Counted from the stretch's first letter, positions 1 through 19,419 are shown. The stretch is DNA of 64,000 nucleotides from Rhodovibrionaceae bacterium GXU_MW_A322 (GCA_052078155.1 JBQJBP010000006.1:34581-98580), one strand, 5' to 3'. A program made the numbers and translations. The notes: a model not told the origin generated them from the sequence alone.

Positions 1-435
1 CAGATCAGATCGACCCACGGCGCCGCCACGCTGTCACAGCTGGACAATCTCATTGCCATCAATTCGGCGCTGGAGGTGGATCTCTTTGGGCAGATTAACG
101 CCGAGCAGGTGGGAAACCGCTATCTGGGCGCCATCGGCGGGCAGGTGGATTTCATGCATGCCGCCACCACCGCGTCTCAAGGGCTGTCCATCATTGCACT
201 GCCCGCCAGCCAGGGAAAAAGCGGTCGAAGCCGCATTGTTTCACAGTTGAGCGGTCCCTTTGTGACCACCTGCCGGGCAGATGTTGATCTGGTGGTAACT
301 GAACACGGTGTGGCGGATCTGCGCGGCAAAACCCTGGATGCGCGGGCCAGCAGCCTGATCAACATCGCCCCGCCGGATCAACGCGAGGCCTTGTTGCGGG
401 ACTACCACGACAAACTGGGGGGCGGAGCGATTTAA
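1..435 (+). CDS. acetyl-CoA hydrolase/transferase family protein, C-terminal part (5' end outside window)
   Basis: Open frame from window start; C-terminal motifs (GQVDFMHAA..., SIIALPASQGKSGRSRIV..., CRADVDLVVTEHGVADLRGKT) typical of the acetyl-CoA hydrolase/transferase C-terminal domain. Confidence 0.7.
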   Translation, partial: QIRSTHGAATLSQLDNLIAINSALEVDLFGQINAEQVGNRYLGAIGGQVDFMHAATTASQGLSIIALPASQGKSGRSRIVSQLSGPFVTTCRADVDLVVTEHGVADLRGKTLDARASSLINIAPPDQREALLRDYHDKLGGGAI

Positions 436-519
436 GGGGTTCGCCTCTGTCCGGCTGATCTGGAGAGGGCGGATCGGCCTTGTACAAAAAAACAACAAAA
501 GACCAACAGGAAACGGTTC

Positions 520-2460
520 ATGAGTGAGACAGGTTTATCCAAGCTGAAGCAGTTTTTATCTCCCCGATCGGTGGCGATCATCGGCGCATCTGATAATCCC
601 ACGCGCATTGGGGGACGGCCTGTCCACTACCTGAAGAACCACGGTTATGAAGGGGAGATCTATCCGGTCAATCCGCAGCGGGAAACGGTCCAGGGCCTGA
701 AAGCCTATACGGATGTCGACAGCATTGACGGACCGGTGGACGCCGCCATCGTTGCCGTGCCGGCTGCCCGTGTGATGGATGCCGTGCAGGCCTGTGCGGA
801 TAAGGGCGTAAAAGGCTGTATCGTTCTTTCCTCCGGCTTTGCAGAGCTCAGTGAGGCAGGCGGGAAAGCCCAGGACGACCTGACATCACTGGCAAGAGAA
901 AGCGGCATGCGGATTTTCGGACCCAACTGTCTGGGGTCGGTCAATGTGCATGAGCGCTTCTTTGCCACCTTCTCCGGCGTGATTGCCCGACAGGAGCCTC
1001 TTATGGGCGGCCTGTCTCTGGTGACGCAGTCCGGGGCCTTCGGCAGTCACCTCTATGGGCTGGCTCAGGACGCCGGTCTGGGGCTGCGCTACATGATGAC
1101 CACCGGCAATGAATGTGATGTGCAGGTGGCCGATGGCATTCAGGTCTGCGCTGAAGATCCGAAAACCAGCGTCATCATCGCATATGCAGAAGGGATCAAG
1201 GATGGCCCCCGTTTGATTGCGGCTCTGGAGGCCGCAGCGGCGGCTGAAAAACCGGTGATCTTCTTCAAGGTCGGGCGCTCAGCTGTTGGGGCAGAGGCCG
1301 CCAGGGCCCACACGGCTTCAGATACCGGTGACGATATGCTGGCGGACGCCATCTTGCGCCAGTACGGGGCTTACCGGGCAGAGACGACGGAAGAACTGAT
1401 GGACATTGCCTACGCTGCCACCCACGGCAGCCGCCCGAAAGGCAAGCGCCTGGGCTTGATCACCGTCTCTGGCGGGGTCGGGGTTCTGATGTCCGATGCC
1501 GCAGAAGCCAAAGGACTGGATGTGGCGCCCCTGGCCGAAGAGGCCCAGGCCGCGCTGGTGGATCTCATGCCCTTTGCTGCAGCCCGCAATCCAGTGGACG
1601 TGACCGCCCAGATCCTCAATCAGCTGGATGTCATGCCTCAGTTTTTTTCAACCCTGCTGGAAAAGGGCCAGTACGATGCCAGCATTGTGTTCTTCTCCAG
1701 CGCTGTTTCCACCAAGAACTTTGCCGACACCTGCCTGGCGGCCATGAAGGAACTGCGCCGGGAACATCCGGACGCCTACATCATCATGTCGATCCTGGCC
1801 GATGAAACTCAGCGGCGGGACTATGAAGCTCTGGGCTTTCCTGTCTTTGCCGATCCCAGCAGGGCGGTTTCTGCCATTGGGGCTCTGGCCCGATTCTCTG
1901 AAGCTTTTGAGCGCCAGAAAAGGCGGGGAGAACTGGAAGATGCGGTTGGGCAGTACCGGGCCGATATCAAGGCAGGGCTTACTCAAAAGACCCTGCTGAG
2001 CCACGCCGGGCTTGATCTGGGACCAGACCTCAGCCACGGCAGCAGCAAGGACGCTGCAGAGACGACTCTGGAAGTGCAGCTGGATCTGCAGGACGACCCG
2101 ACCTTCGGTCCGGTGATGACCGTGAAACCGGCGGGAAGCCTGGGCCGCGCTCTGAACAGCCGGGCCTGCCGCAGAGTTCCCTTTTCCAGCGATGAGGCGG
2201 AAGATCTTCTAGGTGAACTGAAACTAGGCCCTCTCTTTGAACAGCAGGGAGGGTATCCGGCAGCAGACAAAGCCGCGTTGGTGGCTGTCCTGTCCCGCCT
2301 TTCTTTGCTGGCGGCGGCGGGAGGTTTGACCCCCGGTGAAGCAGATCAGTTGCATCTAATTGTCCGCGAAAGCGGGAAAGGCGTGGCAGTCAAGCCTTGG
2401 CCTGTGGCAGGTAACGGGCGCGAAACTGCAGGAAGCACCGTTGCACAGCCTGCGCTTTAG
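520..2460 (+). CDS. acetate--CoA ligase (ADP-forming), fused alpha/beta (CoA-binding + ATP-grasp)
   Basis: N-terminal CoA-binding Rossmann (PRSVAIIGASDNPTRIGG...), succinyl-CoA-synthetase-like flavodoxin and ATP-grasp regions; 646 aa; good start context. Confidence 0.8.
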   Translation: MSETGLSKLKQFLSPRSVAIIGASDNPTRIGGRPVHYLKNHGYEGEIYPVNPQRETVQGLKAYTDVDSIDGPVDAAIVAVPAARVMDAVQACADKGVKGCIVLSSGFAELSEAGGKAQDDLTSLARESGMRIFGPNCLGSVNVHERFFATFSGVIARQEPLMGGLSLVTQSGAFGSHLYGLAQDAGLGLRYMMTTGNECDVQVADGIQVCAEDPKTSVIIAYAEGIKDGPRLIAALEAAAAAEKPVIFFKVGRSAVGAEAARAHTASDTGDDMLADAILRQYGAYRAETTEELMDIAYAATHGSRPKGKRLGLITVSGGVGVLMSDAAEAKGLDVAPLAEEAQAALVDLMPFAAARNPVDVTAQILNQLDVMPQFFSTLLEKGQYDASIVFFSSAVSTKNFADTCLAAMKELRREHPDAYIIMSILADETQRRDYEALGFPVFADPSRAVSAIGALARFSEAFERQKRRGELEDAVGQYRADIKAGLTQKTLLSHAGLDLGPDLSHGSSKDAAETTLEVQLDLQDDPTFGPVMTVKPAGSLGRALNSRACRRVPFSSDEAEDLLGELKLGPLFEQQGGYPAADKAALVAVLSRLSLLAAAGGLTPGEADQLHLIVRESGKGVAVKPWPVAGNGRETAGSTVAQPAL

Positions 2461-2474
2461 GACCGTTTGAACGT

Positions 2475-3878
2475 ATGCGCAGAGCGCCCTTCAAAAGCCG
2501 TTTGTCGTCGGCTGTGCTGGTGGTTGTTGTGGCCATGGCCGTGGCCATGGAGTTGGGAGTGTCCGGGGGCAGTACTTTGCTGGCTGGCGCGGGCATTCTG
2601 ACGTTCATGGCACTGGAATGGCGACGGATGGCCAGAGTCGCCCGGGTGACTTTCCTGGTTGGAATGGGCTTGCTGGCCTGGCTTTATCTGATGGATCAGA
2701 TGTCTGTCGACCTGCTGGTCAAAGCCGTCAATCGTTCCGCCTTTTTTGTCTTCTTTGTGGTCTCTCTGGATGTCTTGCGGGACGCTGCCACGCTGTCGCC
2801 GCTGATCAAACGCTGCGGCAAGATGATCATCGACCAGCCCCCGGGCCGCCGCTATGCCGTGCTGACCTTTGGCGGGCACCTGTTTGGCCTGCTACTGAAT
2901 GTGGGAACACTCAATCTGCTGGGGGCCATGGTTCGGCGCACGGTCGATACGGGCCAGCAGGGTGTGGAAGACCGCGTTCGGCAGGTCCGGTTAAAACGCA
3001 TGACCCTGGCCCTGTTGCGTGGATTCTGTGCCATTACCTTGTGGGCGCCGACCTCTGTGACTGTGGTGGTGGTGCTGTCCGCCATCCCGGATTTCGACTG
3101 GTACGCTTTCTTTCCGCTCGGTGTTCTGACCTCAGTGGTCTATGTGTTGCTGGGCTGGGCTCTGGATCGCCTCTGGTTCTCCAGAGGGCAGGTTCCAGAC
3201 CAGCCTGAAAGCCTGAGGCGGGTGATCCGCAGCCTCTTCCCGCTGTTCCTGCTGAACTGCTTTGTCCTGGGGACCACCATTGTGGTTTCGGAGCTTTTTG
3301 GCCTGCGTATGATCGGGGCTTTGTTGATCTGTGTGCCGGTCATCGGCGCGGGCTGGATTATCTTTGAGTACCGCCGGGCAGGGGGGCTGAAAACCCTGGG
3401 ACTGGCCCGGCGCCGTATCACCCATCATCTGGTGCCGGGGCTCTGTGACTTGAGGTCAGAAATTGGCATTCTGGCCGCGGCCGGATTTATGTCCGTACTG
3501 ATCCTCTCCATGGTGGACATCCAGTATCTGAGCCAGATGACAGCACAGCTGGGGCTGACCCAGGGCATGATCCTGGTGGCCGCCTTGTGGAGCATTCTGG
3601 CGCTGGGGGTGGTGGGTTTTAACCCGATCATCACCGTGGCGGTGGCCGTCGGTATCGTCGGCAGTCTGACCAGCCTGGACATGAATCCGCACCTGCTGGC
3701 GTTGACCGGCACCATGGGGTGGGCGCTGGTCACAGGATACTCCCCCTTTGCCGCTGCCAACCGTCTGGTCAGCCGCTGCGTTCGCCACAGTCCGGTAGAG
3801 GTGGGCATGCGCTGGAATGCGCCCTTTATCTTACTGGTTCTCCTTTTAACCTCTGCCGTGTTGCTGATCTTTTCCTGA
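2475..3878 (+). CDS. polytopic integral membrane protein of unknown function (putative permease)
   Basis: 467-aa ORF with more than 10 hydrophobic helices and no recognisable catalytic motifs; co-directional and adjacent to the acetate--CoA ligase gene. Confidence 0.6.
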   Translation: MRRAPFKSRLSSAVLVVVVAMAVAMELGVSGGSTLLAGAGILTFMALEWRRMARVARVTFLVGMGLLAWLYLMDQMSVDLLVKAVNRSAFFVFFVVSLDVLRDAATLSPLIKRCGKMIIDQPPGRRYAVLTFGGHLFGLLLNVGTLNLLGAMVRRTVDTGQQGVEDRVRQVRLKRMTLALLRGFCAITLWAPTSVTVVVVLSAIPDFDWYAFFPLGVLTSVVYVLLGWALDRLWFSRGQVPDQPESLRRVIRSLFPLFLLNCFVLGTTIVVSELFGLRMIGALLICVPVIGAGWIIFEYRRAGGLKTLGLARRRITHHLVPGLCDLRSEIGILAAAGFMSVLILSMVDIQYLSQMTAQLGLTQGMILVAALWSILALGVVGFNPIITVAVAVGIVGSLTSLDMNPHLLALTGTMGWALVTGYSPFAAANRLVSRCVRHSPVEVGMRWNAPFILLVLLLTSAVLLIFS

Positions 3879-3921
3879 TGGAAAACGGGACAGGGCAGGG
3901 CCTCTAGAGCAAAGAAACAGG

Positions 3922-4338
3922 ATGACGTCCATGAACAAACGTGAGGATTTTATCGGCTCCTGGCAGATGGTCAGCTGGCGCTCTCTGAAAGACGGGGAGC
4001 CCGATGGTTACCCCATGGGGGAAGACGCAAAGGGGCAGATTGTTTATGCCGCTGAGGGTCGCATGGCCGCCTTTTTGATGCGGGCGGACTTTGAAGAAAA
4101 CAGTCAGACAACTCTGCCCACAGCCCAAACCATGATTTCCTATGGCGGCACCTGGCGGGTTGAGGGCGAGGAGATTGTGCACGACGTGATCTTTGCCACC
4201 TTGCCTCACTGGATTGGCCGACCGCTGGTGCGCCGGGTGGAACGACAAGGCGAGCGCATCCTGCTGCGCACCGCCCCGGAATACAGTAAATCCGGCAAGC
4301 GCTATGAGCATGAATTGCTTTGGGAACGGGTTGCCTGA
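3922..4338 (+). CDS. lipocalin-like domain protein
   Basis: 138 aa; FIGSWQMVSW...GQIVYAAEGRMAAF...ISYGGTWRVEG pattern of the bacterial lipocalin-like (Lipocalin_5) family; start may be the MNKRED methionine at 3931. Confidence 0.6.
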   Translation: MTSMNKREDFIGSWQMVSWRSLKDGEPDGYPMGEDAKGQIVYAAEGRMAAFLMRADFEENSQTTLPTAQTMISYGGTWRVEGEEIVHDVIFATLPHWIGRPLVRRVERQGERILLRTAPEYSKSGKRYEHELLWERVA

Positions 4339-4396
4339 TAGACGCCAGTCCGGCCGCTTAATCCAGGGATTGGCTGCCGTCATGAACAAGGGAAGG

Positions 4397-4417
4397 GAGG
4401 GCTCTTGCCCCTCCCTG
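4397..4417 (+). terminator. GC-rich hairpin (GGGAGGG-N7-CCCTCCC) downstream of lipocalin-like gene
   Basis: Perfect 7-bp inverted repeat seen directly in the sequence, about 60 nt after the stop at 4338. Confidence 0.4.
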
Positions 4418-4438
4418 ATCAGGGAAATTTTCCTTTGC

Positions 4439-4480
4439 CGCTGATTTGGGCAGAAAAATCAGCTTTTGGCTCATTTTTTG
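4439..4480 (+). terminator. hairpin GCTGATTT-N8-AAATCAGC followed by T-rich tract (putative Rho-independent terminator)
   Basis: Perfect 8-bp inverted repeat followed by TTTTGGCTCATTTTTT. Confidence 0.45.
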
Positions 4481-4670
4481 TCAGCAAAATTTGGACAAAA
4501 GGGCCTCAGGCGCGTACATCAATAGCCGAAATTTCTCAGAGCAGCAGTCTGGTCGTCGATTCTGGTTCAGACCCTGCTGCGAATGATCATGTGTAGCTGA
4601 GCAATACGGACCGTGGTGGGGGCGCGAGCGCCTGTGCCCGCACCCGTTGAGACAAACTCTGGAGACCCTA

Positions 4671-5570
4671 ATGACCGGTACAGCAAGTAACCAAGAGCAG
4701 TGGAAAAAAGTATCTGAAGGAAAAGGCTTTATCGCCGCCTTGGATCAAAGCGGGGGCTCCACTCCCAAGGCTCTGGGCCTTTACGGCATTGAACCCAGTG
4801 CCTGGTCCAACGACGAAGAAATGTTCGACCTGATGCATCAGATGCGCGTGAGGATCATGACCTCCCGTGCGTTCCAGAAAGATCAGATCGTCGGCGCCAT
4901 CCTGTTCGAAAAGACCATGGACTCCCAGGCTGAAGGTCAGCCGGTTCCTGCCTTCCTCTGGGAAAAATGCGGCGTGGTTCCCTTTCTGAAAGTGGACAAG
5001 GGCCTGGAAGCTGAAGCTGACGGCGTCAGCCTGATGAAGCCCATGCCGGGCCTGGGCGAAACCCTGGACCGTGCTGCCAAGCTTGGCATCTTCGGTACCA
5101 AGATGCGTTCCGTCATCAAGTCGGCGTCTGAAAGCGGCATCAACGCCATCGTTGATCAGCAGTTTGAAGTGGGCAAAGAGATCCTCTCTCATGGCCTCGT
5201 TCCCATCATCGAGCCGGAAGTGGACATCAACAGCGCAGACAAAGGCGATTGCGAGAAGATCCTCTTCGCCGCCATTCTGAAGCACCTGGATGCACTGTCT
5301 GACGACCAGTCCGTGATGCTGAAGCTGACTCTGCCCAACGACGCCAATGCGTACAAAGCCCTGATCGATCACCCCCGTGTTCTGCGCGTGGTGGCTCTGT
5401 CCGGCGGTTACAGCACCGATGTGGCCTGCGAAAAGCTCAGTCAGAACGACGGCATGATCGCCAGCTTCTCCCGTGCGCTGACCGAAGGCCTCAACGTCTC
5501 CATGAGCGACGATGAATTCGAAGGCGCGCTGGAAGGCAAAGTCGAGAAAATCTACCAGGCATCTCTGTAA
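4671..5570 (+). CDS. fda: fructose-bisphosphate aldolase, class I (bacterial Fda type)
   Basis: GKGFIAALDQSGGSTPKAL, FLWEKCGVVPFLKVDKGL and IFGTKMRS motifs match the ~296-aa Gram-positive-type class I FBA; the ORF starts at 4647, but the MTGTASN methionine at 4671 gives the canonical length. Confidence 0.8.
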   Translation: MTGTASNQEQWKKVSEGKGFIAALDQSGGSTPKALGLYGIEPSAWSNDEEMFDLMHQMRVRIMTSRAFQKDQIVGAILFEKTMDSQAEGQPVPAFLWEKCGVVPFLKVDKGLEAEADGVSLMKPMPGLGETLDRAAKLGIFGTKMRSVIKSASESGINAIVDQQFEVGKEILSHGLVPIIEPEVDINSADKGDCEKILFAAILKHLDALSDDQSVMLKLTLPNDANAYKALIDHPRVLRVVALSGGYSTDVACEKLSQNDGMIASFSRALTEGLNVSMSDDEFEGALEGKVEKIYQASL

Positions 5571-5590
5571 CGCCGACAGGCGAGAGGTAA

Positions 5591-5646
5591 ATTCACGCTT
5601 AGAGGGGTGTCACCAAGTGAGGCCACTTAAAGCGATTTGACTCTAG
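5591..5646 (+). repeat. partial copy (module C) of modular MITE-like intergenic element
   Basis: ttcacgcttagaggggtgtcaccaagtgaggccacttaaagcgatttgactctag matches the 3' module of the copies at 6473 and 11672; its terminal CTCTAG overlaps the stop codon of the minus-strand hydratase gene. Confidence 0.7.
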
Positions 5647-6425
5647 AGACCTTTAAAGAGGGCGGGCCGCTTTTCCAGGAAAGCAGCCACGCCCTCTTTT
5701 GCATCGTGGCGGTGGCGCAGGTCACCGTTCATTTCCAGTTCGGCCCGAAACTGCGTCTCAAAGTCGTCCCCTTCCAGGCGATCCAGCAGGGCCCGGGTCT
5801 GAACCAGCGCATGGGTGGGGCCTTTGGCCAGCTGAGCGGCCAGTTCCCGGGCGCGGGGCAGCAGGGCATCATCTTCCAGAACTTCGCTGACCACGCCCAG
5901 ATCCAGGGCCTGTCCGGCAGAGAGGGCGTCGTTGGTCATCATCATTTTCAGGGCGTTGCTCCGGCCGATGGCTTTGGGCAGCAGATAGCTGGACCCCAGA
6001 TCCGGGGCCAGCCCGATGCGGCTGAAAACCTGAATGAACTTGGCGGAGGAAGCGGCCAGCAGAATGTCGCCTGTCAGGGCCAGGGAGAAGCCGCCGCCGG
6101 CGGCTGTGCCATTCACCGCAACGATCACCGGAACCTGACAGCGGCGGAAGGCCTGAAAGACCGGGAAGTAGGCCCGCATCAGTTCCTCTGCCAGGTCCTT
6201 TTCCGGCGGCACCCGGTCCCGTAGATCCTGTCCGGAACAAAAACCCCGCCCTGCGCCTGTCAGGATGAGGGCCCGCAGCTCCGGATCCTGTTCAGTCTGG
6301 CGCAAGGCATCCAGAGCTTCTGCCATCATGGCAAAGGTCAGCGCATTGAGAGCTTCCGGACGGTTGAGTGTAAGGGTTGCAACCGCCCCCTCCCGGGTAA
6401 ACTGAATGTACTGATAGTCCTGCAT
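5643..6425 (-). CDS. enoyl-CoA hydratase/isomerase (crotonase family)
   Basis: 260 aa; ALNAL...ILTGAGRGFCSGQDL...VAVNGTAAGGGFSLAL crotonase fold motifs. Confidence 0.85.
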   Translation of the reverse strand: MQDYQYIQFTREGAVATLTLNRPEALNALTFAMMAEALDALRQTEQDPELRALILTGAGRGFCSGQDLRDRVPPEKDLAEELMRAYFPVFQAFRRCQVPVIVAVNGTAAGGGFSLALTGDILLAASSAKFIQVFSRIGLAPDLGSSYLLPKAIGRSNALKMMMTNDALSAGQALDLGVVSEVLEDDALLPRARELAAQLAKGPTHALVQTRALLDRLEGDDFETQFRAELEMNGDLRHRHDAKEGVAAFLEKRPALFKGL

Positions 6426-6472
6426 GCTCAGTTCCCTTTGCGTCCAGACCTTTGGCTGGTTCGGGCCGTGTC

Positions 6473-6612
6473 TTAGAGCATGATCGGTTCAGTCAGAAGC
6501 GCTTTGCGCTAGTAACTAAACCGTTGATCATCCTCTAACGCGTTGAAAAGAGGCAATTTCACGCTTCAAGTGTTGTCACCTAGTGAGTCCACTTAAAGCG
6601 ATTTGACTCTAG
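6473..6612 (+). repeat. full-length modular MITE-like intergenic element (modules A-B-C)
   Basis: cttagagcatgatcgg...agaagcgctttgcgct...aaaccg...cctctaacgcgttgaaaagagg...cacctagtgagtccacttaaagcgatttgactctag; its terminus supplies the TAG stop of the CoA-transferase gene ending at 6609. Confidence 0.85.
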
Positions 6613-7883
6613 CCCTGATGTTGTCTGCTAGCCTTCTTTTCCAGCAGGCTGGCGATTTCCGCTTCAGAGTATCCGGCTTCAGCCAGCACTTCCGTCGAAT
6701 GCGCCCCCAGATGGGGAGGCAGGGTGCGAATGGTGGAAGGGGTCTTGGAAAAGCGCACGGGCGGTTCGGGCATGCGCAGAGTCCCTTCGGTGGGGTGCTC
6801 TTTGAAATGCCAGAAGCCGCTGGCTTCCAGTTGCTCGTCATTCAGCAGATCTTCTTTGGTGTTGACCCGCTGCACGGGAATGTTGGCGGCATCCAGATCC
6901 CGCTGCCATTCGGCAGTGGTCCGGGTCGCGACAATATCGGCCAGCAGACCGTAGATCTCCTGGGAGTTTGCAACCCGTGTGGCCAGGCTTTCGAAGCGCG
7001 GATCGCTGCACAGCTCTTCCCGCCCGGCCAGTTTCAGAAACTGCTGCCAGTTGTCGTCCGTATAGGGCAGAACCGCCAGGTAGCCGTCCTTGGTGGCGTA
7101 GGGCTTGCGCATGGTGTTCAGCAGGCGCTCGTAGCCCATCTGCGCAATGGGGGGCTCAAAGCAGGCACCGTAGAGGTGTTCCACCATGACAAAGTCCACG
7201 AGAGACTCAAACATGGGCACTTCAATGGCCTGACCACCGCCGCCGCGCTGGCGATGGAACAGAGCTGCCAGGACGGAAGAGACCACGTTAAAGGAGGTGG
7301 TCTTGTCAGCCATGATAGTGGGGACATAGCGGGGCTGGTCGGAGGTGATGGTCTGCAGATCTGCCAATCCTGAGGCGGCCTGAATGATGTCATCATAGGC
7401 TGGTTTGTTGGCCATGGGGCCGTCCCCGCGGAAACCGTAGGCCGCCACAAAGATCAGCTCGGGATAGGCGCTGGTGAACTTTTCTGCCTCCAGTCCCAGT
7501 TTCTTGGCCACAGCCGGGCGCATGTTGTGCACAAAGACATCGGCCGTCCCGACAATCTTGAACAGAGCCTCCCGGCCTTCCTCCTTGGTCAGATCCAGCA
7601 CCACGGAGCGCTTGTTGCGATTGGTGGCCATGAAAAGAGAGCCCATGGCCGGGTTCTTGCGGGGCCCGGAGTGCCGGGTGGTGTCGCCCACCGGGGTTTC
7701 AATCTTGATCACATCGGCGCCCATGTCGCCCAGCATCTGCGTGGCCCAGGGGCCAAGGATCACGGTGGTCAATTCTACAATGCGGATGCCGTCTAAAGTC
7801 CCGGTCATGTCTGCTAATCCAAAATCAAAAGATAGGGGTCTGTTGTCTGGGGTAGGGGCGGGATCAGCCGCCTGCGCTTTCAA
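6609..7883 (-). CDS. CoA-transferase family III (CaiB/BaiF-like)
   Basis: 424 aa; IRIVELTTVILGPWATQMLGDMGADVIKIE N-terminal signature of family III CoA-transferases. Confidence 0.85.
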   Translation of the reverse strand: MKAQAADPAPTPDNRPLSFDFGLADMTGTLDGIRIVELTTVILGPWATQMLGDMGADVIKIETPVGDTTRHSGPRKNPAMGSLFMATNRNKRSVVLDLTKEEGREALFKIVGTADVFVHNMRPAVAKKLGLEAEKFTSAYPELIFVAAYGFRGDGPMANKPAYDDIIQAASGLADLQTITSDQPRYVPTIMADKTTSFNVVSSVLAALFHRQRGGGGQAIEVPMFESLVDFVMVEHLYGACFEPPIAQMGYERLLNTMRKPYATKDGYLAVLPYTDDNWQQFLKLAGREELCSDPRFESLATRVANSQEIYGLLADIVATRTTAEWQRDLDAANIPVQRVNTKEDLLNDEQLEASGFWHFKEHPTEGTLRMPEPPVRFSKTPSTIRTLPPHLGAHSTEVLAEAGYSEAEIASLLEKKASRQHQG

Positions 7884-8763
7884 TCTGTTCGACCAGAGCC
7901 AGCAGATTGCGGGCCTGTTTCAGATGGGGCATGTCGATCATCTTGCCGTCCAGTCCGACCACGCCCAGCCCCGGGTTCTGTTCGAAGACTTCGACCACCC
8001 GCTTGGCATGGGCGATTTCTTCTTCGGAGGGGGTAAAGGCCCGGTTGATGACCTCGCACTGGGCAGGATGGATGGCAATCTTGCCAATGAAACCAGACTT
8101 CTGATCTCGCAGGCACTCGGCCTCCAGCTCTTCCATGTCCCGGAAGTTGACCACCACCACGCCAACGGGCTGAATTTCCAGCGCCCGGGCCGTTGTCAGA
8201 CAGAGGGTGCGGGCATGCTGGAAGGGGTAGTCATACTCCCCGGTAACGGGATGGCGGTTGTCACTGGCACCCAGCGCCGCTGCCAGGTCTTCCCCGCCCC
8301 AGGTCATGGCCACCAGTCGGTCCGTCACCCCTTCCAGATAGGTGTGGAAGGTCAGCAGGGATGCGGCAGTCTCGGTCGCAACACAGTGGATTTTGGTGCT
8401 GCCCAGCGGCAGGCCTTCGCGGGCTTCCAGGGCCGAGAGGTAGTCGGCCAGACGGTTCACTTCTTCGGCGGAATAGACCTTCGGCAAGACAATGCCATCG
8501 GGCGCCCCGCACATGACAGCGGCCAGATCCGGCAAGGCAAAGTCATGGTCCAGCGGGTTGATGCGCACCCAGAGCTGCTGGCGGGAACGATCGGTTTCCG
8601 CTTTCAGAAATCCCGCCACCATTTCCCGGGCGACCTGCTGGCGATCATCTGCCACTGAATCTTCCAGATCCAGGATCAGGGCGTCTGCCGGGTTCAGGCG
8701 TCCCTTTGTCAGTTTGCGGTCACTGTCACCAGGGACGAACAACCAGGAGCGGATGATTTTCAT
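7864..8763 (-). CDS. HpcH/HpaI-CitE family CoA-ester lyase (citryl/malyl/citramalyl-CoA lyase-like)
   Basis: 299 aa; RSWLFVPGDS...ILDLEDSV and a conserved D/E-rich TIM-barrel pattern of the citrate lyase beta subunit-like family. Confidence 0.75.
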   Translation of the reverse strand: MKIIRSWLFVPGDSDRKLTKGRLNPADALILDLEDSVADDRQQVAREMVAGFLKAETDRSRQQLWVRINPLDHDFALPDLAAVMCGAPDGIVLPKVYSAEEVNRLADYLSALEAREGLPLGSTKIHCVATETAASLLTFHTYLEGVTDRLVAMTWGGEDLAAALGASDNRHPVTGEYDYPFQHARTLCLTTARALEIQPVGVVVVNFRDMEELEAECLRDQKSGFIGKIAIHPAQCEVINRAFTPSEEEIAHAKRVVEVFEQNPGLGVVGLDGKMIDMPHLKQARNLLALVEQIESAGG

Positions 8764-8806
8764 AGATCTAACTTCTCATTCGTGACGTTTTCAGAGAGCG
8801 TGGAGG

Positions 8807-10027
8807 TCAGGCAGCCTTGCCTTTGTCTTTCGGCGTGGCGGTTGCACCACTGGCCAGCAGGGCCGTTATCTTGTCTTCGCTGTAGCCGATCTCCTGCAGG
8901 ATTTCGACGCTCTGCTCGCCCAACAGAGGGGCGTGGCGAGAGCCTTCAGGCTGGGTTTCAGACCAGCTGGCTGGCACGGCCATGTCGTTCAGGCGGCCCT
9001 CGCTGGGATGTTCAAAGCTGGAAAAGAAACCCACTTCTTCCAGGTGCGGATCATCGATCAGAGAATCCAGCGTGTGCAGCGGCATGGCCGGAATGTCGGC
9101 GTCGTCGAAAAAGGCCAGCCACTCCTGGGTCGTGCGGGTCAGCAGGAGGTCAGCCAGTTCGCCGTAGATGGAATCAATGTTTTCCGTTCGGGTGGTCATG
9201 GAGGCATAGCGCGGGTCCTGCTCCATCACTTCCGGTTTCCCCAGGGCGGAGAAAAAGGCCCGCCAGTGGATGTCCGTATAGACCAGAACACACACATACC
9301 CGTCCTTGGTGGGGTAGGGGCGACGGTCCGCAGACAGCAGTCGGGGATAGCCGGTCGGACCGATTGGAGGGTCAAAGGTTCTGCCGGAAAAATGGTCCGC
9401 CAAAACAAAGCTGGCCATCATCTCAAACATGGGCATGTCCAGGCGTTGTCCCTGGCCCGTACGGCACTGATGATATAGGGCTCCGTTGATCTGACCCACG
9501 GCCCACAGACCCACGCCCCGGTCGACAATGGCGCTGGGGGCGTATTTGGGGGCCGAGCCATCGGCTTGCTCAAAGAGGGATGGGATCGCCACCGCCCCCT
9601 GAATCAGGTCATCAAAGGCAGGCTTTTTGGCGTAAGGGCCATTTTGCCCGTAGCCGTACATTCCTGCATAGATAATGCGCGGATTGGCCTGGGATACGGT
9701 TTCATAGGACAGGCCCAGCCGTTCCATGACCTGGGGACGGCGGTTATAAAGCAGGATGTCAGCCTGCTTGATCAGGTCCATGACCGCGGCATGGCCGTCC
9801 GGATTTTTCAGATCCAGAACGATGGAGCGTTTGGAGCGATTGACGTTCAGGTAAATCGCGCCCATGCCCGGGTTGCGCAGCGGTCCGATACCTCTGACCG
9901 GATCCCCTTCCGGCGCTTCGACTTTGATCACATCTGCACCCATATCCCCCAGAATCTGGGTGGTGTAGGGCGCCATCAGCATGTTCGAGAGATCGACGAT
10001 TTTCACGCCGTCAAGGGGTCTGGCCAT
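8807..10027 (-). CDS. CoA-transferase family III (CaiB/BaiF-like), second paralogue
   Basis: 406 aa; VKIVDLSNMLMAPYTTQILGDMGADVIKVEAP signature; paralogous to the 6609-7883 product. Confidence 0.85.
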   Translation of the reverse strand: MARPLDGVKIVDLSNMLMAPYTTQILGDMGADVIKVEAPEGDPVRGIGPLRNPGMGAIYLNVNRSKRSIVLDLKNPDGHAAVMDLIKQADILLYNRRPQVMERLGLSYETVSQANPRIIYAGMYGYGQNGPYAKKPAFDDLIQGAVAIPSLFEQADGSAPKYAPSAIVDRGVGLWAVGQINGALYHQCRTGQGQRLDMPMFEMMASFVLADHFSGRTFDPPIGPTGYPRLLSADRRPYPTKDGYVCVLVYTDIHWRAFFSALGKPEVMEQDPRYASMTTRTENIDSIYGELADLLLTRTTQEWLAFFDDADIPAMPLHTLDSLIDDPHLEEVGFFSSFEHPSEGRLNDMAVPASWSETQPEGSRHAPLLGEQSVEILQEIGYSEDKITALLASGATATPKDKGKAA

Positions 10028-10039
10028 ATCGGTTACCTG

Positions 10040-10441
10040 TTAGGCTGCGGAACTGGGACGGAACATGGGCAGGGCTTGTCCGCCTTCTGTTTCCCGAAAG
10101 GTCACTTCCACCGCCTGATCAATACTCAGACCTTCAAAGTCACAATCGACAATGTTGGTCAGCATGGTTACGCCTTCCTCAAGAGTGACGTAGGCGATGA
10201 CATAGGGAATTTCGGCCCGGCGCATGACCGAGTAGGAGTAGATCTTTCCCTTGCCGCTGGCCTGGTACCATTGGGTGTTGTTGCTCAGACAATGGGGACA
10301 GACAGCCCGAGGGTAGAAGTGGGTGTCATTGCAGTCGCCGCATTTCTTGAGCAGCAGTTTCCCTTCCTTCGTGGCGTCCCAGTAGGCCTGGGATTCCATG
10401 GTGATGGTCGGATCTGCGTAGGTGCGTTCCGGATTGCTCAT
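10040..10441 (-). CDS. DUF35 Zn-ribbon/OB-fold protein (partner of SCP-x type thiolase)
   Basis: 133 aa; CGDCNDTHFYPRAVCPHCLS Cys4 zinc ribbon plus OB-fold; 4-nt overlap with the upstream thiolase-like gene. Confidence 0.75.
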   Translation of the reverse strand: MSNPERTYADPTITMESQAYWDATKEGKLLLKKCGDCNDTHFYPRAVCPHCLSNNTQWYQASGKGKIYSYSVMRRAEIPYVIAYVTLEEGVTMLTNIVDCDFEGLSIDQAVEVTFRETEGGQALPMFRPSSAA

Positions 10442-11610
10442 GCGTCGTTCCTCCCCAGAATGACGGTTGCACTGCCCATGCGCTGGGAGATCGAGCCTCC
10501 CGTGCCGTGGGCCAGGGCCAGGGTGCAGTCAGGCACCTGAACTTTTGGATGGGCTTCGCCGCGCAGCTGGCGCACGGCCTCGATGACTTTGGTCATGCTG
10601 CCCCGGTTGCTGGGGTGGTTGTTGCAGAGACCGCCGCCATCGGTGTTGAAGGGCAGTTTGCCGACCCCGGAGATGAGGTTGCCGTCTGAGACAAAAGCCC
10701 CGCCTTTGCCTTTTTCGCAGAACCCCAGGTCCTCGATCGTTTCCAGCACCGTGATGGTGAAGCTGTCGTAGATGGAGGCATAGTCCATGTCCGCCGGTGT
10801 CAGATTGGCTTCCTCAAAGGCAATGGGACCGGATTTGGCCGCGCCGGTGTAGGTCAGATCAAACCGACCGGAATTGAGGTGTTTGATGGCCGCTCCCTGG
10901 CCAAGAACCTTCACGCAGCGGTCACCAAGGGTTTTGGCAATTTCCGGGCTGACCAGGATCACCGCCCCGCCGCCGTCACTGATCACACAGCAGTCCAGCC
11001 GGTGCAGAGGATCGGCAATCATGGGGGAGTTCACCACGTCTTCCACCGTGACCACATCGCGCAGCATGGCGTGCTCGTTGTACTGGGCATGGTGGGAGGC
11101 TGCCACCTTGATCCAGGCCAGCTGTTCGCTGGTGGTGCCATACTCGTGCATGTGCCGTTTGGCGGCCATGCCGTACATGTTCGTAATGACGGGCTGATAG
11201 GGGATTTCAAAGCCACGTTCCGGCAGCAGGTCGCCATAGTCGCGGGCAGGCAGGGTTTTCAGGCCTTCTGCTCTCGGTCGCCCGGCCAGGGTAACCAGCG
11301 CCACTTTGCACTTGCCTGAGGCGATGGCCTCCATGGCATGGCCCACATGAACGATGTAGGACGACCCGCCGGTTTCCGTGCTGTCCATATAGGTGATGTC
11401 CATGCCCATGTACTCGGCCAGAGACATGGGGCCAAGGCCGGGCACTGTGGCGTCACAGAAAATGCCATCCACATCGTCTTTGGTCAGTCCGGCATCGGCC
11501 AGGGCACCCTGGGCGATTTCGGCATGCAGTTGCATGACCGTTTTGTCCGTGGCTTTGCGGGTCGGGTGCTCAAACGCCCCGGCAATGTAAGCTTTACAAC
11601 TTCGGCTCAT
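10438..11610 (-). CDS. thiolase-like protein, SCP-x/nonspecific lipid-transfer-protein type
   Basis: 390 aa with thiolase fold (GMDITYMDSTETGGSS..., CNNHPSNRGS...GGSISQ); its pairing with DUF35 is typical of this subfamily. Confidence 0.75.
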   Translation of the reverse strand: MSRSCKAYIAGAFEHPTRKATDKTVMQLHAEIAQGALADAGLTKDDVDGIFCDATVPGLGPMSLAEYMGMDITYMDSTETGGSSYIVHVGHAMEAIASGKCKVALVTLAGRPRAEGLKTLPARDYGDLLPERGFEIPYQPVITNMYGMAAKRHMHEYGTTSEQLAWIKVAASHHAQYNEHAMLRDVVTVEDVVNSPMIADPLHRLDCCVISDGGGAVILVSPEIAKTLGDRCVKVLGQGAAIKHLNSGRFDLTYTGAAKSGPIAFEEANLTPADMDYASIYDSFTITVLETIEDLGFCEKGKGGAFVSDGNLISGVGKLPFNTDGGGLCNNHPSNRGSMTKVIEAVRQLRGEAHPKVQVPDCTLALAHGTGGSISQRMGSATVILGRNDA

Positions 11611-11671
11611 ATCAATTCCCGTTTGGTTTTACGTGTCCCTAAGGACAGGTTCTTCAAAGTCTTGTCGGGTC

Positions 11672-11803
11672 TGGCGCATGATCGGTTTGGTCAGAAAGCG
11701 CTCGGAACCAAACCAACATAAGTCCTCTAATTTCTTGAAAAGAGACCTATCCCTGCTCCAGGGACCGTCACCAGGTGAGGCCACCTGAAGCCTGTGGCTC
11801 TAG
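11672..11803 (+). repeat. diverged full-length copy of modular MITE-like intergenic element
   Basis: gcatgatcggtttggtcagaaagcgctcgg...cctctaatttcttgaaaagagac...caccaggtgaggccacctgaagcctgtggctctag; its terminus supplies the TAG stop of the ACAD gene ending at 11800. Confidence 0.75.
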
Positions 11804-12966
11804 TAGGATTTCGGCAGGCCCAGGGCCCGTTCGGCCAGATAACAGAGGATCAGCTGCGGGCTGACCGGTGCGATGCGATGGATCAGGCATTCACGCAGAT
11901 AGCGCTCCACATGGAATTCCTTCGCATAGCCCATGCCGCCGTGGGTCATCACCGCGTTGGTGCAGGCCTCAAAGGTTGCTTCACCGGAAAGATACTTGGC
12001 GGCATTGGCTTCCTTGCCGCAATCCTCCCCGGCGTCGTAGAGGTTGGCGGCGCGGAAAGCCATCAGGTTGGCGGCTTCCAGCTCAGCCCAGGATTTGGCC
12101 AGGGGATGCTGAATGCCCTGGTTCTGACCGATGGCCCGGCCAAAGACCTCTCTGTCCTTGGCGTAGGTGACAGCTTTGTTGAGGGCGCAGCGACCAATGC
12201 CCACCAGAGAGGCGGCGATGAGAATGCGCTCTGCATTCAAACCGTGCAGCAGATAGCGGAAACCTTTGCCTTCCTCGCCGATCAGATCTTCTTTGGGGAT
12301 CTTCAGGCCATCAATGAAGACCTGGTTGGAGTCCACACATTTGCGGCCCATCTTGTCGATCTTGCGCACCTCCACGTGGGCACGGTCCAGATCGGTGTAG
12401 AAGAGGGAGAGGCCGTCCATGGGGCGCTCTGTTTCGCCGAGATCCTTGGTGCGGGCGATCAGCAGCATTTTGTTGGCCTGCTGGGCCGTGGAGGTCCAGG
12501 TTTTCTGGCCGTGCACCACATAGTGGTCGCCGTTCCAGACGGCCTTGGTTTTCAGCCGTGTGGTGTCCAGGCCGGTGTTGGGTTCGGTCACAGCAAAGCA
12601 GGCTGTGTCTTTGCGGCTGATGATGGGGGGCAGCCAGCGTTGCTTTTGCTCTTCAGTACCAAAAACCACCACCGGGTTCAGGCCGAAGATGTTGATGGCT
12701 ATGGCGGCAAAACCGGCGTTGCCGGTGCCGGATTCCGTGACAGCCTGGACCATGGTGGCGGCTTCGGTGATGCCCAGGCCACTGCCGCCGTATTTTTCCG
12801 GCATGGCAATGCCCAGCCAGCCTTCATCGGCAATGGCCTGGCAGAAGTCGTGCGGGAACTCGCCGTCATTATCCCGGTCCAGCCAGTACTGATCGTCAAA
12901 GCGCTCGCACAGTTTGGCGATGCTGTCGCGGATCATCTTTTGCTCTGGACTGTAATCAATGCTCAT
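11800..12966 (-). CDS. acyl-CoA dehydrogenase
   Basis: 388 aa; ACAD N-terminal, middle and C-terminal regions (YGGSGLGITEAATM..., WTSTAQQANKMLL..., GGMGYAKEFHVERYLRE). Confidence 0.85.
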   Translation of the reverse strand: MSIDYSPEQKMIRDSIAKLCERFDDQYWLDRDNDGEFPHDFCQAIADEGWLGIAMPEKYGGSGLGITEAATMVQAVTESGTGNAGFAAIAINIFGLNPVVVFGTEEQKQRWLPPIISRKDTACFAVTEPNTGLDTTRLKTKAVWNGDHYVVHGQKTWTSTAQQANKMLLIARTKDLGETERPMDGLSLFYTDLDRAHVEVRKIDKMGRKCVDSNQVFIDGLKIPKEDLIGEEGKGFRYLLHGLNAERILIAASLVGIGRCALNKAVTYAKDREVFGRAIGQNQGIQHPLAKSWAELEAANLMAFRAANLYDAGEDCGKEANAAKYLSGEATFEACTNAVMTHGGMGYAKEFHVERYLRECLIHRIAPVSPQLILCYLAERALGLPKSY

Positions 12967-13368
12967 CTGTCATCATCTTTCCGCTGACTGGCGCTTGCTA
13001 ACCAGTAATTTCGATTATTCGAACGATATGCGTATATTGGTCTTTATCGCAAGAAAGTTCGACCCTGTTGGCTGGATTTCTGATCCCTGGTGATGGGAAG
13101 GAAGGGGCGTGCCGCCTGGGAACTTGCGCAGAGGTGCGGTTTCTTCCTGGCCAGCAGCAAGGAACGGGCCGTTGAAGGTTCGGTCGGCCTGCACTGGACG
13201 CGTATAGCCAACCAGGCCACCTCTTGATCGCGTTCAATCTCCAACTGAAGAAAGCGCGCTGGATTTGCTGAGGTTCCTGCGTGTTTGGCTCGTTCTCGGC
13301 TTTTTTTGAAGAGGTCAACGCAGCAGAGCCGGGCAGGCGTCGAGGGACAACCTGCCCGTTCCGGTCTG

Positions 13369-14142
13369 TTAAACGCCGATGGTGTAGCCGCCGTTGACAG
13401 AGAGGTGCTGGCCGGTGATGTAGCTGGCTGCTTCTGACAGCAGGAAGCAGACCGGCTTGCAGACTTCTTCCGGATCGGAGAAGCGGCCCATGGGGACCTG
13501 CGCCATAACCTTGTCGCGGAACTTCTCACCGCGGATCACTTCTGTCATGGGGGTTTCCACCACGCCGAAACACACGGTGTTGACCCGCAGCCCCATTGCG
13601 GCCCACTCCCGGGCAGCGGACATGGTCAACCCCATGACACCGGATTTGGCGGCGCCGTAGTTGATCTGGCCAATGGTGCCGCGCCGTCCGGCGTCAGAGG
13701 AGATATTGACGATGGATGCCGGGCTTTTGTCCCCGGCTTCTGACCGCTCGTACATGTGACGACCAACGGATTGCAGGCAGTAGAAGACACCGGACAGGTT
13801 TACGTCGATGACCTGCTGCCAGGTATCCACCTCCATATTGATGGCCATGGCGGCCCGCACGATGCCGGCATTGTTCACCAGGCCATGAATGGCGCCGTGG
13901 GACGCGACAACGGAGTCGACCATGGATTGCACGAACTGAGGGTCGGAGACGGAGCCCACATGGACCGCTGCGTTTTCTGCGCCCAGTTCATCGGCCAGAG
14001 CCTCAACCTTTTCACCCTGCAGGTCCACCAGGATCACCTTGCCGCCCAAGGCAACGGACTGGCGTGCCACAGCTTCGCCGATTCCCTGACCCGCGCCGGT
14101 GACAATGATGTTGCGGCCCTCAAGGCTCATTGGATTGTTCAT
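13369..14142 (-). CDS. short-chain dehydrogenase/reductase (SDR)
   Basis: 257 aa; TGAGQGIGEAVAR glycine-rich NAD(P)-binding motif, NNAG and YGAAK catalytic motifs. Confidence 0.85.
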   Translation of the reverse strand: MNNPMSLEGRNIIVTGAGQGIGEAVARQSVALGGKVILVDLQGEKVEALADELGAENAAVHVGSVSDPQFVQSMVDSVVASHGAIHGLVNNAGIVRAAMAINMEVDTWQQVIDVNLSGVFYCLQSVGRHMYERSEAGDKSPASIVNISSDAGRRGTIGQINYGAAKSGVMGLTMSAAREWAAMGLRVNTVCFGVVETPMTEVIRGEKFRDKVMAQVPMGRFSDPEEVCKPVCFLLSEAASYITGQHLSVNGGYTIGV

Positions 14143-14587
14143 GAAGTCCTGTCCTCTGTTCAGTCTTTAGGGGCTTGCGACCCCCTTGTTGTGCGTCCAG
14201 CCCCTGTGGAGGAGCAATGAAAATTCGGATATACGTTTTCTGTTCGCTTATATATACATTTGCCGAATAACGAGATCAACAGAGGAAGTTCAGTTTGAAT
14301 GGGTGGGCGGGGAAAAGACTGTTGAATTTTCCGCCATAACCAGTCGGTGGGAAGGGTGGCTTGAGCGATGTCAGCGCTACAGATAGCGGGTGCTGGCAGA
14401 CAGATGCCAAAAGAGGACCCGCAGACGGACGATCTCTGCGGATTCCCATGGGGTGTATGAAGGAGGGGTAGAGGGAGCGGTCATCAACGCCTGCCCGGCA
14501 GGTGGGTGGGAATGGGTATGAGATAGCCCCGGGATCCCGTCTCCTGCAGGGGACCGGATGACGACAGCGTCCGGCTGAAAGCCGACA

Positions 14588-14627
14588 CTAGGCAATTTGG
14601 CAATTTGGCAGTTAGGCAACTAGGCCG
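14588..14627. repeat. five tandem 8-bp units (TWGGCARY) in intergenic region
   Basis: taggcaat-ttggcaat-ttggcagt-taggcaac-taggccga seen directly in the sequence; lies just 3' of the dipeptidase gene and about 450 bp upstream of the SDR gene. Confidence 0.5.
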
Positions 14628-14659
14628 ACCAGTCAGAAAGATTCGTTGCGGACCCCGGT

Positions 14660-16249: not shown

Positions 16250-16423
16250 CTGGATCTGTCCTTTGGTCTGCTGATTTTTTTGAACCGGCCCGTTTTGATT
16301 GCGCCGGTTGCTTTGTGTCAGAACCTCTATGACTTCCTTGCTCGCCTTTATAGTAAATCTTCCGGCTCCTAACATATCCCAGATGGCAGAGTGGTTTTCG
16401 GCTGGCACTGTGGCCTCTTGCCA

Positions 16424-16600: not shown

Positions 16601-16622
16601 CAGTTTGCTGCTCGCTGTTTGA

Positions 16623-19384: not shown

Positions 19385-19419
19385 GATTTTTATTCCTGAA
19401 TTTTCCTTGATTGCGGGCG

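Follow-up and report, generated by a model that had tools for sequence, protein, structure and literature searches.

Eight genes at 5643-14142 of a 64,000-nucleotide (nt) stretch of DNA from Rhodovibrionaceae bacterium GXU_MW_A322 (JBQJBP010000006.1:34581-98580; hereafter the window, meaning the whole 64-kb stretch) are one copy of a catabolic operon family that is conserved in marine Alphaproteobacteria. Judged from domains and active-site residues, the products of the cluster are two candidate C-C lyases, two transferases, a crotonase of isomerase type, a desaturase and an oxidoreductase. We estimate a probability of about 0.5 that this operon family serves a small acid, likely beta-branched C5-C7 and probably dicarboxylic, which would be handled as coenzyme A (CoA) esters and cleaved without thiolysis.

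An eight-gene cluster conserved in marine relatives

A previous reading made from the DNA alone (the sequence-only reading) had listed eight co-directional genes, and each was recovered as a minus-strand open reading frame (ORF) at the same coordinates, scoring far above the Pfam thresholds (Table 1). In the direction of transcription they encode a short-chain dehydrogenase/reductase (SDR), an acyl-CoA dehydrogenase (ACAD), a thiolase-like protein, a DUF35 protein, the transferase CaiB2, a CitE-like lyase, the transferase CaiB1 and a crotonase. The ATG at 7808 is most likely the true start of CaiB1, because its homologues align from this position onward. All eight ORFs align over their full length with orthologues and are under purifying selection (ratio of nonsynonymous to synonymous substitution rates, dN/dS, 0.07-0.26, with dS saturated). 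A genomic-island reading was not favored: GC content is uniform over positions 1-20000, so that nothing marks the cluster as horizontally acquired, and no integrase or transposase family was found among the Pfam-scanned ORFs. Megablast of the whole cluster against plasmid sequences gave only short matches, all to the thiolase-like gene, and a literature search on this gene combination returned nothing relevant.

For the comparison with relatives, a scan with the CitE protein, restricted to one genome per species, yielded 80 loci, to which an exact protein look-up added seven, and all window proteins were searched by tblastn against these loci. This gene-neighborhood comparison, which the sequence-only reading had proposed as a check, revealed the same order in at least 14 marine alphaproteobacterial loci. 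In 14 loci from metagenome-assembled genomes (MAGs) of marine Alphaproteobacteria and from Sneathiella (CitE identity 74-78%), the ACAD, thiolase-like and DUF35 genes lie in the same order and on the same strand, accompanied by an IclR regulator in 13/14 and by a cognate MaoC in 11/14. The relatives' proteins are 57-86% identical to those of the window. At its fullest the order is SDR-IclR-ACAD-thiolase-like-DUF35-(CaiB2)-(MaoC)-CitE-(CaiB1)-(SDR)-crotonase, with SDR, CaiB1, CaiB2, MaoC and crotonase each present in only a subset of relatives and with IclR not standing between SDR and ACAD in locus L028. Between the ACAD and its counterparts in the clusters of relatives, identity is 77-83%, and the same range (77-83%) holds for the SDR compared with the SDRs that head the cluster in eight loci (L004, L012, L014, L021, L023, L028, L084 and L085). 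Orthologues of CaiB2 (69-77% identity) were found in L001, L007, L012, L014, L015, L021, L028 and L084-L086, those of CaiB1 (67-75%) come after CitE in many relatives, and those of the crotonase (57-64%) close the cluster in nine. CaiB1 and CaiB2 occur singly or together and are therefore not an obligate heteromer. A shorter version with only CaiB, ACAD, IclR, MaoC and CitE is present in six loci (L001, L002, L007, L015, L016 and L086).

The most persistent partner of CitE is a 150-amino-acid (aa) MaoC gene directly before it, found in 23 loci (17 with a 10-kb flank), and this pairing reaches Chloroflexota loci at 38% CitE identity. The best family for the relatives' MaoC is RipB/Ich, with a score of 124.5 for NF038241 (cut-off 340). 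The window belongs with L012, L014 and L084 to a variant that lacks the cognate MaoC and has CaiB2 immediately ahead of CitE; in L084, a MaoC paralogue (59% identical) lies 6 kb away. Searching the 64-kb window by tblastn with three MaoC proteins from relatives detected no MaoC, hence no itaconyl-CoA hydratase of the RipB/Ich type encoded with the lyase, and no IclR or nitroreductase homologue was found in the window either. When the cognate MaoC was searched against a protein database, the best 120 matches, all of them at least 82% identical, included none from A322. The sequence-only reading had overlooked that the genes form part of a conserved unit with an IclR regulator, which this copy is without. 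Gene order, orientation, orthologues and the WCGNATAWNCGW operator described below place the eight genes in the conserved marine alphaproteobacterial cluster.

A thiolase fold without the thiolase cysteines

The label of SCP-x thiolase given in the sequence-only reading does not suit the thiolase-like protein, in which both catalytic cysteines are gone. In a HMMER alignment with the true thiolase 7yvy, the nucleophilic Cys faces Gly82, HD(C)F is replaced by Y281-D-S-F and GHP by N-N-H332-P, so that none of the three signatures of SCP2/SCP-x thiolases is retained. Gly-Gly, YDSF and NNHP are kept in 14/14 orthologues, 13 of which read ETGGSSY and one DAGGTSY, and the true SCP2 thiolases of L047, L050 and L058 carry Cys, HDCF and GHP in the same alignment columns. 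The gene is also the most constrained of the cluster (dN/dS about 0.07). Its product scores 683 bits with NCBIfam PRK08142, above the cut-off of 462, and its ranking among PDB structures is headed by 4u4e (300 bits), an uncharacterized protein with the same motifs, followed by Sal 9myr (173), Ltp2 6ok1 (145) and the true thiolase 7yvy (138).

The nearest characterized relatives of the protein are the steroid aldolases Sal and Ltp2. These are defined by a catalytic Tyr in YDCY or YDHF, by a Gly where thiolases have their nucleophile and by association with a DUF35 protein (PMC12329534). The thiolase-like protein shares these features, as it has the Tyr of the YDxF/Y motif (Tyr281, aligned with Ltp2 Tyr294), the Gly at the former nucleophile position (Gly82, aligned with the Gly of both Ltp2 and Sal) and a DUF35 protein encoded next to it. 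On these residues, the protein is a putative acyl-CoA retro-aldolase that resembles Sal and Ltp2 and depends on DUF35; if it is an aldolase, it would represent a third active-site variant. The DUF35 protein itself combines a rubredoxin-like C4 zinc ribbon (C34-x2-C37-x10-C48-x2-C51), with the spacing described for the DUF35 of ChsH2 (PMC12329534), and an OB fold. The first 4 nt of its gene overlap the end of the thiolase-like gene, and an overlap of the same length is present in L084 and L085.

The thiolase-like/DUF35 pair (65-66% identity) is also found on pMaq22A_2p of Methylobacterium aquaticum (L089) and on a plasmid of Variovorax boronicumulans (L090), where the thiolase-like homologues carry the same motifs. 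Its neighbors there are SDR, MaoC or crotonase, ACAD, CoA ligase or ADP-forming synthetase and TTT/ABC binding proteins, with no CitE; in Methylobacterium an ADP-forming synthetase flanks the pair. Because the pair occurs in soil bacteria with other partners, it is a mobile module serving several pathways.

Crotonase, dehydrogenase and oxidoreductase

The catalytic glutamates of rat enoyl-CoA hydratase are Glu144 in GGCE and Glu164 in GQPE. The crotonase had been taken for a hydratase of the ECH family in the sequence-only reading. Aligned with E. coli PaaG and with PaaF, a true hydratase, the protein shows Ser114 and Phe134 in the columns of the two catalytic Glu of PaaF, and its Asp142 occupies the position of the PaaG catalytic Asp in the G-L-x-P-D-x-G loop. 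Both hydratase glutamates are thus gone and the isomerase Asp is kept. Among PDB structures, E. coli PaaG 4fzw_C (199 bits) and Thermus PaaG rank highest, and with these residues the crotonase-fold protein is a candidate for the PaaG (isomerase) type; however, the score with TIGR02280 (PaaG) is 239.5 (cut-off 345) and no paa genes lie nearby. Together with Gly at the nucleophile position and YDSF in the thiolase-like protein, Ser and Phe in place of Glu remove the ground for the "beta-oxidation-like set" of the sequence-only reading: with neither thiolase cysteines nor hydratase glutamates, the genes do not form a canonical beta-oxidation set.

The ACAD carries Glu246 in LNAERILIAA and has Pro367 where medium-chain-type enzymes carry the catalytic Glu; in the alignment with 1ws9, 6fah_C and 4l1f, IGEGT/IYEGT stands opposite IAPVS and LDGGR opposite LNAER. 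We take the Glu246 position to be the catalytic-base site of isovaleryl-CoA and long-chain dehydrogenases. The SDR has the TGxxxGxG cofactor motif, the YxxxK catalytic motif and, after the second beta strand, Asp39, which presumably denotes a preference for NAD.

Family III CoA-transferases and a CitE-like lyase

Both CaiB proteins, which are 42% identical to each other, have the CoA_transf_3 domain and the anhydride-forming Asp of family III CoA-transferases. Asp169 of CaiB2 aligns with the Asp of the YfdW GD(S) motif (LGDSNTG) and with the corresponding Asp of SUGCT, and in CaiB1 an Asp was read from the sequence at the equivalent place. Conservation of this catalytic residue agrees with the substrate activation by family III CoA transfer that the sequence-only reading had put forward. 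The top PDB matches are SUGCT 9br6 for CaiB2 (182 bits) and SUGCT 9br7 for CaiB1 (173 bits). As racemase structures reach only 78-84 bits compared with 173-182 for SUGCT, alpha-methylacyl-CoA racemase activity is unlikely for either protein.

The CitE-like lyase noted in the sequence-only reading has intact catalytic motifs: LDLED, R67, E131, GGED159L and the C-terminal GKMIDMP, which we take to be the metal-binding and lid residues, align with those of CLYBL, RipC and malyl-CoA lyases. With these residues and its domain score, the protein has the marks of a beta-hydroxyacyl-CoA lyase. It is 100% identical to a protein of Rhodovibrionaceae bacterium A322. Among PDB structures, human CLYBL scores highest (114 bits) and Yersinia RipC and malyl-CoA lyases come next; the Mycobacterium tuberculosis CitE reaches 94 bits and Pseudomonas aeruginosa Ccl-type structures 77 bits. 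The score with NCBIfam NF038242 (RipC_Ccl) is 146.9 bits, below the cut-off of 375 for the (S)-citramalyl-CoA lyase equivalog.

A proposed route and its alternatives

In the route that we propose, for which step order, aldolase activity and substrate nature are inferred from family chemistry, CaiB1 and/or CaiB2 would move CoA from a donor such as succinyl-CoA onto the acid. The ACAD, with its base at the isovaleryl-CoA dehydrogenase position, would introduce a 2,3 double bond, which the PaaG-like crotonase would shift or equilibrate. Hydration to a 3-hydroxyacyl-CoA would be carried out by the RipB/Ich-like MaoC in relatives and, here, by a hydratase in trans or by the crotonase. The C-C bond would then be cleaved, in a retro-aldol or retro-Claisen reaction, by the CitE-like lyase and the cysteine-less thiolase-fold/DUF35 pair, and the NAD-type SDR would oxidize a hydroxyl or carbonyl intermediate. 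A tertiary 3-hydroxyacyl-CoA is not oxidizable to a 3-oxo ester, which would explain why lyases replace the thiolase.

The "CaiB + CitE + hydratase" logic of the sequence-only reading survives in part: CaiB and CitE are there and the nearest analogy is to C5-dicarboxylate pathways, but the hydratase is absent from the 64-kb window. Its caution that the substrate could not be deduced was justified. There is no characterized pathway that explains all members, and none of the NCBIfam equivalog cut-offs is reached; neither orthology nor synteny ties the cluster, with all its members explained, to a characterized pathway such as ict/ich/ccl. The failed cut-offs and the four conserved extra genes suggest a pathway related to that of itaconate/methylsuccinate and distinct from it.

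Several points weigh against the proposed route. None of the cluster proteins reaches an equivalog cut-off among the NCBIfam profiles, so that no step can be assigned by orthology, and no conserved transporter indicates the substrate class. This copy of the cluster has neither a dedicated hydratase nor a regulator. The aldolase assignment is drawn from residues only, and the second catalytic residue (Cys304 in Sal, Tyr344 in Ltp2) is not kept, Ser283 and His332 being found there; in Sal, the Cys-to-Ser variant C304S is inactive (PMC12329534). In addition, the SDR accompanies the thiolase-like/DUF35 pair in unrelated clusters, and an unusual 3-oxoacyl-CoA cleavage would fit equally well.

Among the alternatives, the genes could form a plain itaconate, mesaconate or methylsuccinate cluster, that is, Ict-Ich-Ccl plus a methylsuccinyl-C4-CoA dehydrogenase with the extra genes as accessories. 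The CaiB proteins are indeed closest to SUGCT, which activates itaconate in mammals (PMC9153040); the nearest matches of the CitE-like protein are RipC and CLYBL, a citramalyl-CoA lyase, a RipB/Ich-like MaoC directly precedes CitE in relatives, and an ACAD is part of the characterized cluster. We nevertheless regard this as unlikely, since the scores are far from the equivalog cut-offs (RipC_Ccl 147 vs 375, RipB_Ich 124.5 vs 340, mesaconate CoA-transferase 188-196 for the CaiB proteins vs 700), the P. aeruginosa Ccl-type structures reach only 77 bits, no MmgE/PrpD isomerase is present, and the thiolase-like, DUF35, SDR and crotonase genes, four conserved extras, are left unexplained. The hydratase is also missing from the window, and hydratase and lyase are the only two enzymes specific to the itaconate pathway (PMC12290011). 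It is improbable, too, that the copy studied here is a decaying remnant with no working pathway, having lost its regulator and hydratase and received mobile repeats. IclR and MaoC are absent from the window, copies of a repeat resembling a miniature inverted-repeat transposable element (MITE) occupy two intergenic gaps that are short in relatives, and no A322 protein is among the best 120 matches to the cognate MaoC, although a list of that length cannot show an A322 MaoC below about 82% identity. On the other hand, all eight ORFs are intact, full length and of low dN/dS, the same MaoC-less order recurs in L012, L014 and L084, and the cluster still has two copies of the operator in plausible places.

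A thiolytic beta-oxidation set (ACAD, hydratase, dehydrogenase and SCP-x thiolase/DUF35) acting on a branched chain or on a steroid or bile-acid side chain, as in the second half of the sequence-only reading, would fit the Pfam families, the homology of the thiolase-like/DUF35 pair with steroid side-chain enzymes and the similar modules with CoA ligases in soil bacteria. It is very improbable because both thiolase cysteines are gone in all orthologues, as are both hydratase glutamates here, no steroid ring-degradation genes lie nearby, the single ACAD is of homomeric type and not a ChsE1/E2 pair, and there is a tight linkage between the module and CitE as well as SUGCT-like transferases, whose substrates are small acids. 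A Bbs-like pathway for alkyl- or arylsuccinates, in which a heteromeric family III pair, ACAD, crotonase, SDR and DUF35/thiolase would release succinyl-CoA, seems to us hardly credible. Every Bbs enzyme family is represented, BbsA is the only NCBIfam match of the DUF35 protein, and BbsB and BbsEF are among the PDB/NCBIfam matches. The scores are nonetheless remote from the cut-offs (BbsA 39.9 vs 250, BbsB 137.9 vs 750), BbsB keeps the HD.F and GHP motifs that the thiolase-like protein is without, CaiB1 and CaiB2 stand single in many relatives, and CitE and MaoC have no place in such a pathway; the Bbs equivalogs and a thiolytic BbsB were accordingly not found here.

Promoter and operator

The sequence-only reading had proposed the AT-rich region at 14150-14660, with its 8-bp iterons, as the control region of the cluster; conserved elements were found instead at 14224-14279 (promoter and operator) and at 13011-13037 (operator). 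The intergenic region 14143-14659 is only mildly AT-rich (55.1% GC vs 59.4% for the window, 13th percentile), and the SDR promoter/operator is its sole really AT-rich patch (36% GC). The iterons, a tandem pair of TGCCAAAT at 14595-14610 (minus strand) with TGCC behind it, lie some 50-65 nt past the stop codon of the M19-like gene and are not control elements; only two further copies, both single, occur in the window.

The SDR promoter consists of TTGATC (14279-14274), a 17-nt spacer and TATATA (14256-14251), and the operator half-sites are ATAAGCGAA (14251-14243) and ACGTATATCCGA (14236-14225). In the upstream alignment with eight relatives, TTGAC is conserved as the -35 box, a -10 box can be recognized and the columns ATA..CG.A / CG.ATA..CG.A are invariant, the operator having the form ATAnnCGnA ... 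CGnATAnnCGnA. The 12-mer WCGNATAWNCGW has two sites in the 64 kb (14225-14236 and 13011-13022), compared with 0.07 expected. The second lies in the 402-bp gap between SDR and ACAD (12967-13368), which is where most relatives have IclR. An IclR pseudogene in this gap was considered and rejected, as low-stringency tblastn with three IclR proteins gave noise only. Relatives have essentially one operator per locus, always at the head of the IclR operon or in the divergent gap between IclR and MaoC, and because of this link with IclR-containing operons the operator is predicted to be most likely that of IclR. We infer that an IclR repressor encoded in trans acts on the copy studied here. A consensus sigma-70 scan of 5400-14800 returned no site, TTGATC-17-TATATA failing the rule on the last -10 base, and terminator-like hairpins were not clearly enriched (15 vs 8.4 +/- 2.9 expected).

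Repeats and neighboring genes

The claim in the sequence-only reading that three repeat copies are embedded in the cluster was roughly right: those at 6474-6612 and 11670-11792 lie inside, and the one at 5583-5646 is a half copy outside, beyond the last stop codon. They belong to a dispersed 139-nt element resembling MITEs or repetitive extragenic palindromes (REP), always intergenic, with terminal inverted repeats TAGAG...CTCTAG and an internal hairpin, whose full copies are 88% identical. The gap between the ACAD and thiolase-like genes, which holds one copy here, is about 30-55 nt in relatives. No RNA family was detected by Rfam in 5400-16700.

The ADP-forming synthetase and CoA hydrolase, said in the sequence-only reading to precede the cluster, are on the plus strand and converge on its 3' end, as do the genes of the 467-aa membrane protein, the lipocalin-like protein (Table 1) and a class I aldolase. 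The convergent genes at 1..3878 are possibly associated with the cluster; in L084, a hydrolase/transferase (72% identity) and a 467-aa protein (48.5%) likewise converge on the cluster copy. The 467-aa membrane protein may be a transporter of the pathway. Downstream of the cluster in L084, the segment 12113-20897, part of which recurs in L011, contains the 467-aa protein, the acetyl-CoA hydrolase/transferase, a third family III transferase, the MaoC paralogue, a nitroreductase and three ACAD genes. Homologues of the lipocalin-like protein (56-59% identity) were found within 10 kb of the cluster in L012 (at about 19850) and L014 (at about 16704).

From 14660 onward, the genes (Table 1) have no relation to CoA chemistry. 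In the Sneathiella locus L001, M19-like genes lie a few kb from the cluster copy. The gene row at 16623-20127 presumably resembles a gamma-glutamylmethylamide/N-methylglutamate synthase or glxBCD type set.

Table 1. Features of the window mentioned in the text (positions counted from the first nucleotide of the window).
Feature	Position	Strand	Evidence or remark
Crotonase	5643-6425	-	Pfam ECH_1, 212 bits
CaiB1	6609-7883 (longest ORF, TTG at 7883); 6609-7808 from ATG	-	CoA_transf_3, 366 bits
CitE-like lyase	7864-8763	-	HpcH_HpaI (PF03328), 99 bits (threshold 25); C-C_Bond_Lyase
CaiB2	8807-10027	-	CoA_transf_3 (PF02515), 346 bits
DUF35 protein	10040-10441	-	zf-ChsH2 and OB_ChsH2_C
Thiolase-like protein	10438-11610	-	Thiolase_C_1, 167 bits
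ACAD	11800-12966	-	Three ACAD Pfam domains
SDR	13369-14142	-	adh_short_C2, 202 bits
Promoter and bipartite operator upstream of SDR	14224..14279	-	Comparative alignment with eight relatives
Second bipartite operator copy	13011..13037	-	Gapless alignment to operator columns; 45 nt upstream of ACAD start
Half MITE-like copy	5583-5646		Just past crotonase stop codon
Full 139-nt MITE-like copy	6474-6612		Between CaiB1 and crotonase; 88% complementary to 16424-16561
Degenerate MITE-like copy	11670-11792		Between ACAD and thiolase-like genes; hairpin 11749-11765
Further MITE-like copies	16424-16561, 24878-24931, 30669-30748, 31695-31731		
Acetyl-CoA hydrolase/transferase, C-terminal fragment	1-435	+	Pfam/NCBIfam
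ADP-forming acyl-CoA synthetase	520-2460	+	Pfam/NCBIfam
467-aa strongly hydrophobic membrane protein	2475-3878	+	No Pfam or NCBIfam match
Lipocalin-like protein	3922-4338	+	PF13924
M19-like protein, 590 aa	14660-16432	-	Partial membrane-dipeptidase match (residues 229-486), no NCBIfam match
Type III glutamine synthetase, glutamate-synthase FMN-domain protein, GXGXG-motif protein	16623-20127	-	Glutamine synthetase: TIGR03105, 662 bits

Implications

Close homologues of CitE (74-81% identity) and of MaoC (at least 82%) abound in marine metagenomes and MAGs between the surface and a depth of 4000 m, and with so many marine homologues the cluster is probably a common route of organic-acid turnover in the ocean. 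A bolder proposal, which we advance as speculative and ourselves consider doubtful, is that the cysteine-less thiolase-fold protein and its free-standing DUF35 partner represent a new class of acyl-CoA retro-aldolases outside steroid metabolism, of YDSF/His type, forming with the CitE-like lyase a widespread marine non-thiolytic route for beta-branched small (di)carboxylic acids. Such acids could be isoprenoid-derived or derived from carboxyl-rich alicyclic compounds and the route, if real, would be one that is not known from any organism. With the thiolase-like/DUF35 pair, the thiolase-fold aldolases, a group defined only recently, would reach beyond the catabolism of steroids, which is of interest to enzymology and to C-C bond biocatalysis, and the identity of the substrate would close an annotation gap for proteins now named "CoA ester lyase", "CaiB/BaiF" or "thiolase domain-containing". 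For annotation, the lesson is that a Pfam-level combination of ECH, SDR, ACAD and thiolase need not mean beta-oxidation.

Comparison with known systems

The benzylsuccinate (Bbs) operon has the same protein families, with two family III transferase paralogues and a DUF35/thiolase-fold pair; unlike the cluster described here, it has a true thiolase in BbsB and an obligate heteromer in BbsEF, and contains neither CitE nor MaoC. The Sal-Shy(DUF35) and Ltp2-ChsH2(DUF35) aldolases (PMC12329534) resemble the thiolase-like/DUF35 pair in a thiolase fold without nucleophilic Cys, a Tyr-Asp-x-aromatic motif, an obligate-looking DUF35 zinc-ribbon partner and the neighborhood of ACAD and (in relatives only) MaoC. 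They differ in motif (YDCY/Gln in Sal and YDHF/Tyr in Ltp2, compared with YDSF and His332 here), in a DUF35 domain fused to a hydratase, which is free-standing here, and in their steroid gene context, for which there is no counterpart in a cluster whose likely substrate is a small acid.

In M. tuberculosis, the CitE protein Rv2498c is a bifunctional beta-hydroxyacyl-CoA lyase encoded next to a MaoC hydratase and FadE19 (PMC6689899), an arrangement that recalls the CitE lyase beside a small MaoC hydratase (in relatives) and an ACAD in the operon family. That system acts on beta-branched (3-methyl) acyl-CoA, and the ACAD of the window has an isovaleryl-type base position. The M. tuberculosis CitE is a match of only 94 bits, no carboxylase is present here, and activation would proceed by family III transferases. 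The mammalian SUGCT-CLYBL route for itaconate and other C5-C6 dicarboxylates provides the closest solved structures to the transferases and the lyase, although at an identity of only about 30% and with animal genes that are unclustered and without an aldolase-like partner.

Of the known systems, the itaconate/methylsuccinate pathway (Ict-Ich-Ccl-Mcd) comes nearest, and its counterpart in mammals is SUGCT/CLYBL. The cluster of P. aeruginosa and Cupriavidus necator comprises Ict, Ich, Ccl, an (RS)-methylsuccinyl-C4-CoA dehydrogenase, which is an ACAD, and an MmgE/PrpD isomerase (PMC12290011). The operon family departs from it in proteins that fall far below the equivalog cut-offs, a CitE nearer to human CLYBL than to the Pseudomonas-type lyase, the lack of MmgE/PrpD, IclR-type (in relatives) and not LysR-type regulation, the extra SDR, PaaG-like crotonase and thiolase-like/DUF35 pair, and, in the window, a missing hydratase. 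It shares with the itaconate cluster a family III transferase, an ACAD, a MaoC-type hydratase (in relatives only) and a CitE-type lyase, and with them the scheme of activation by CoA transfer and of a final lyase rather than a thiolase.

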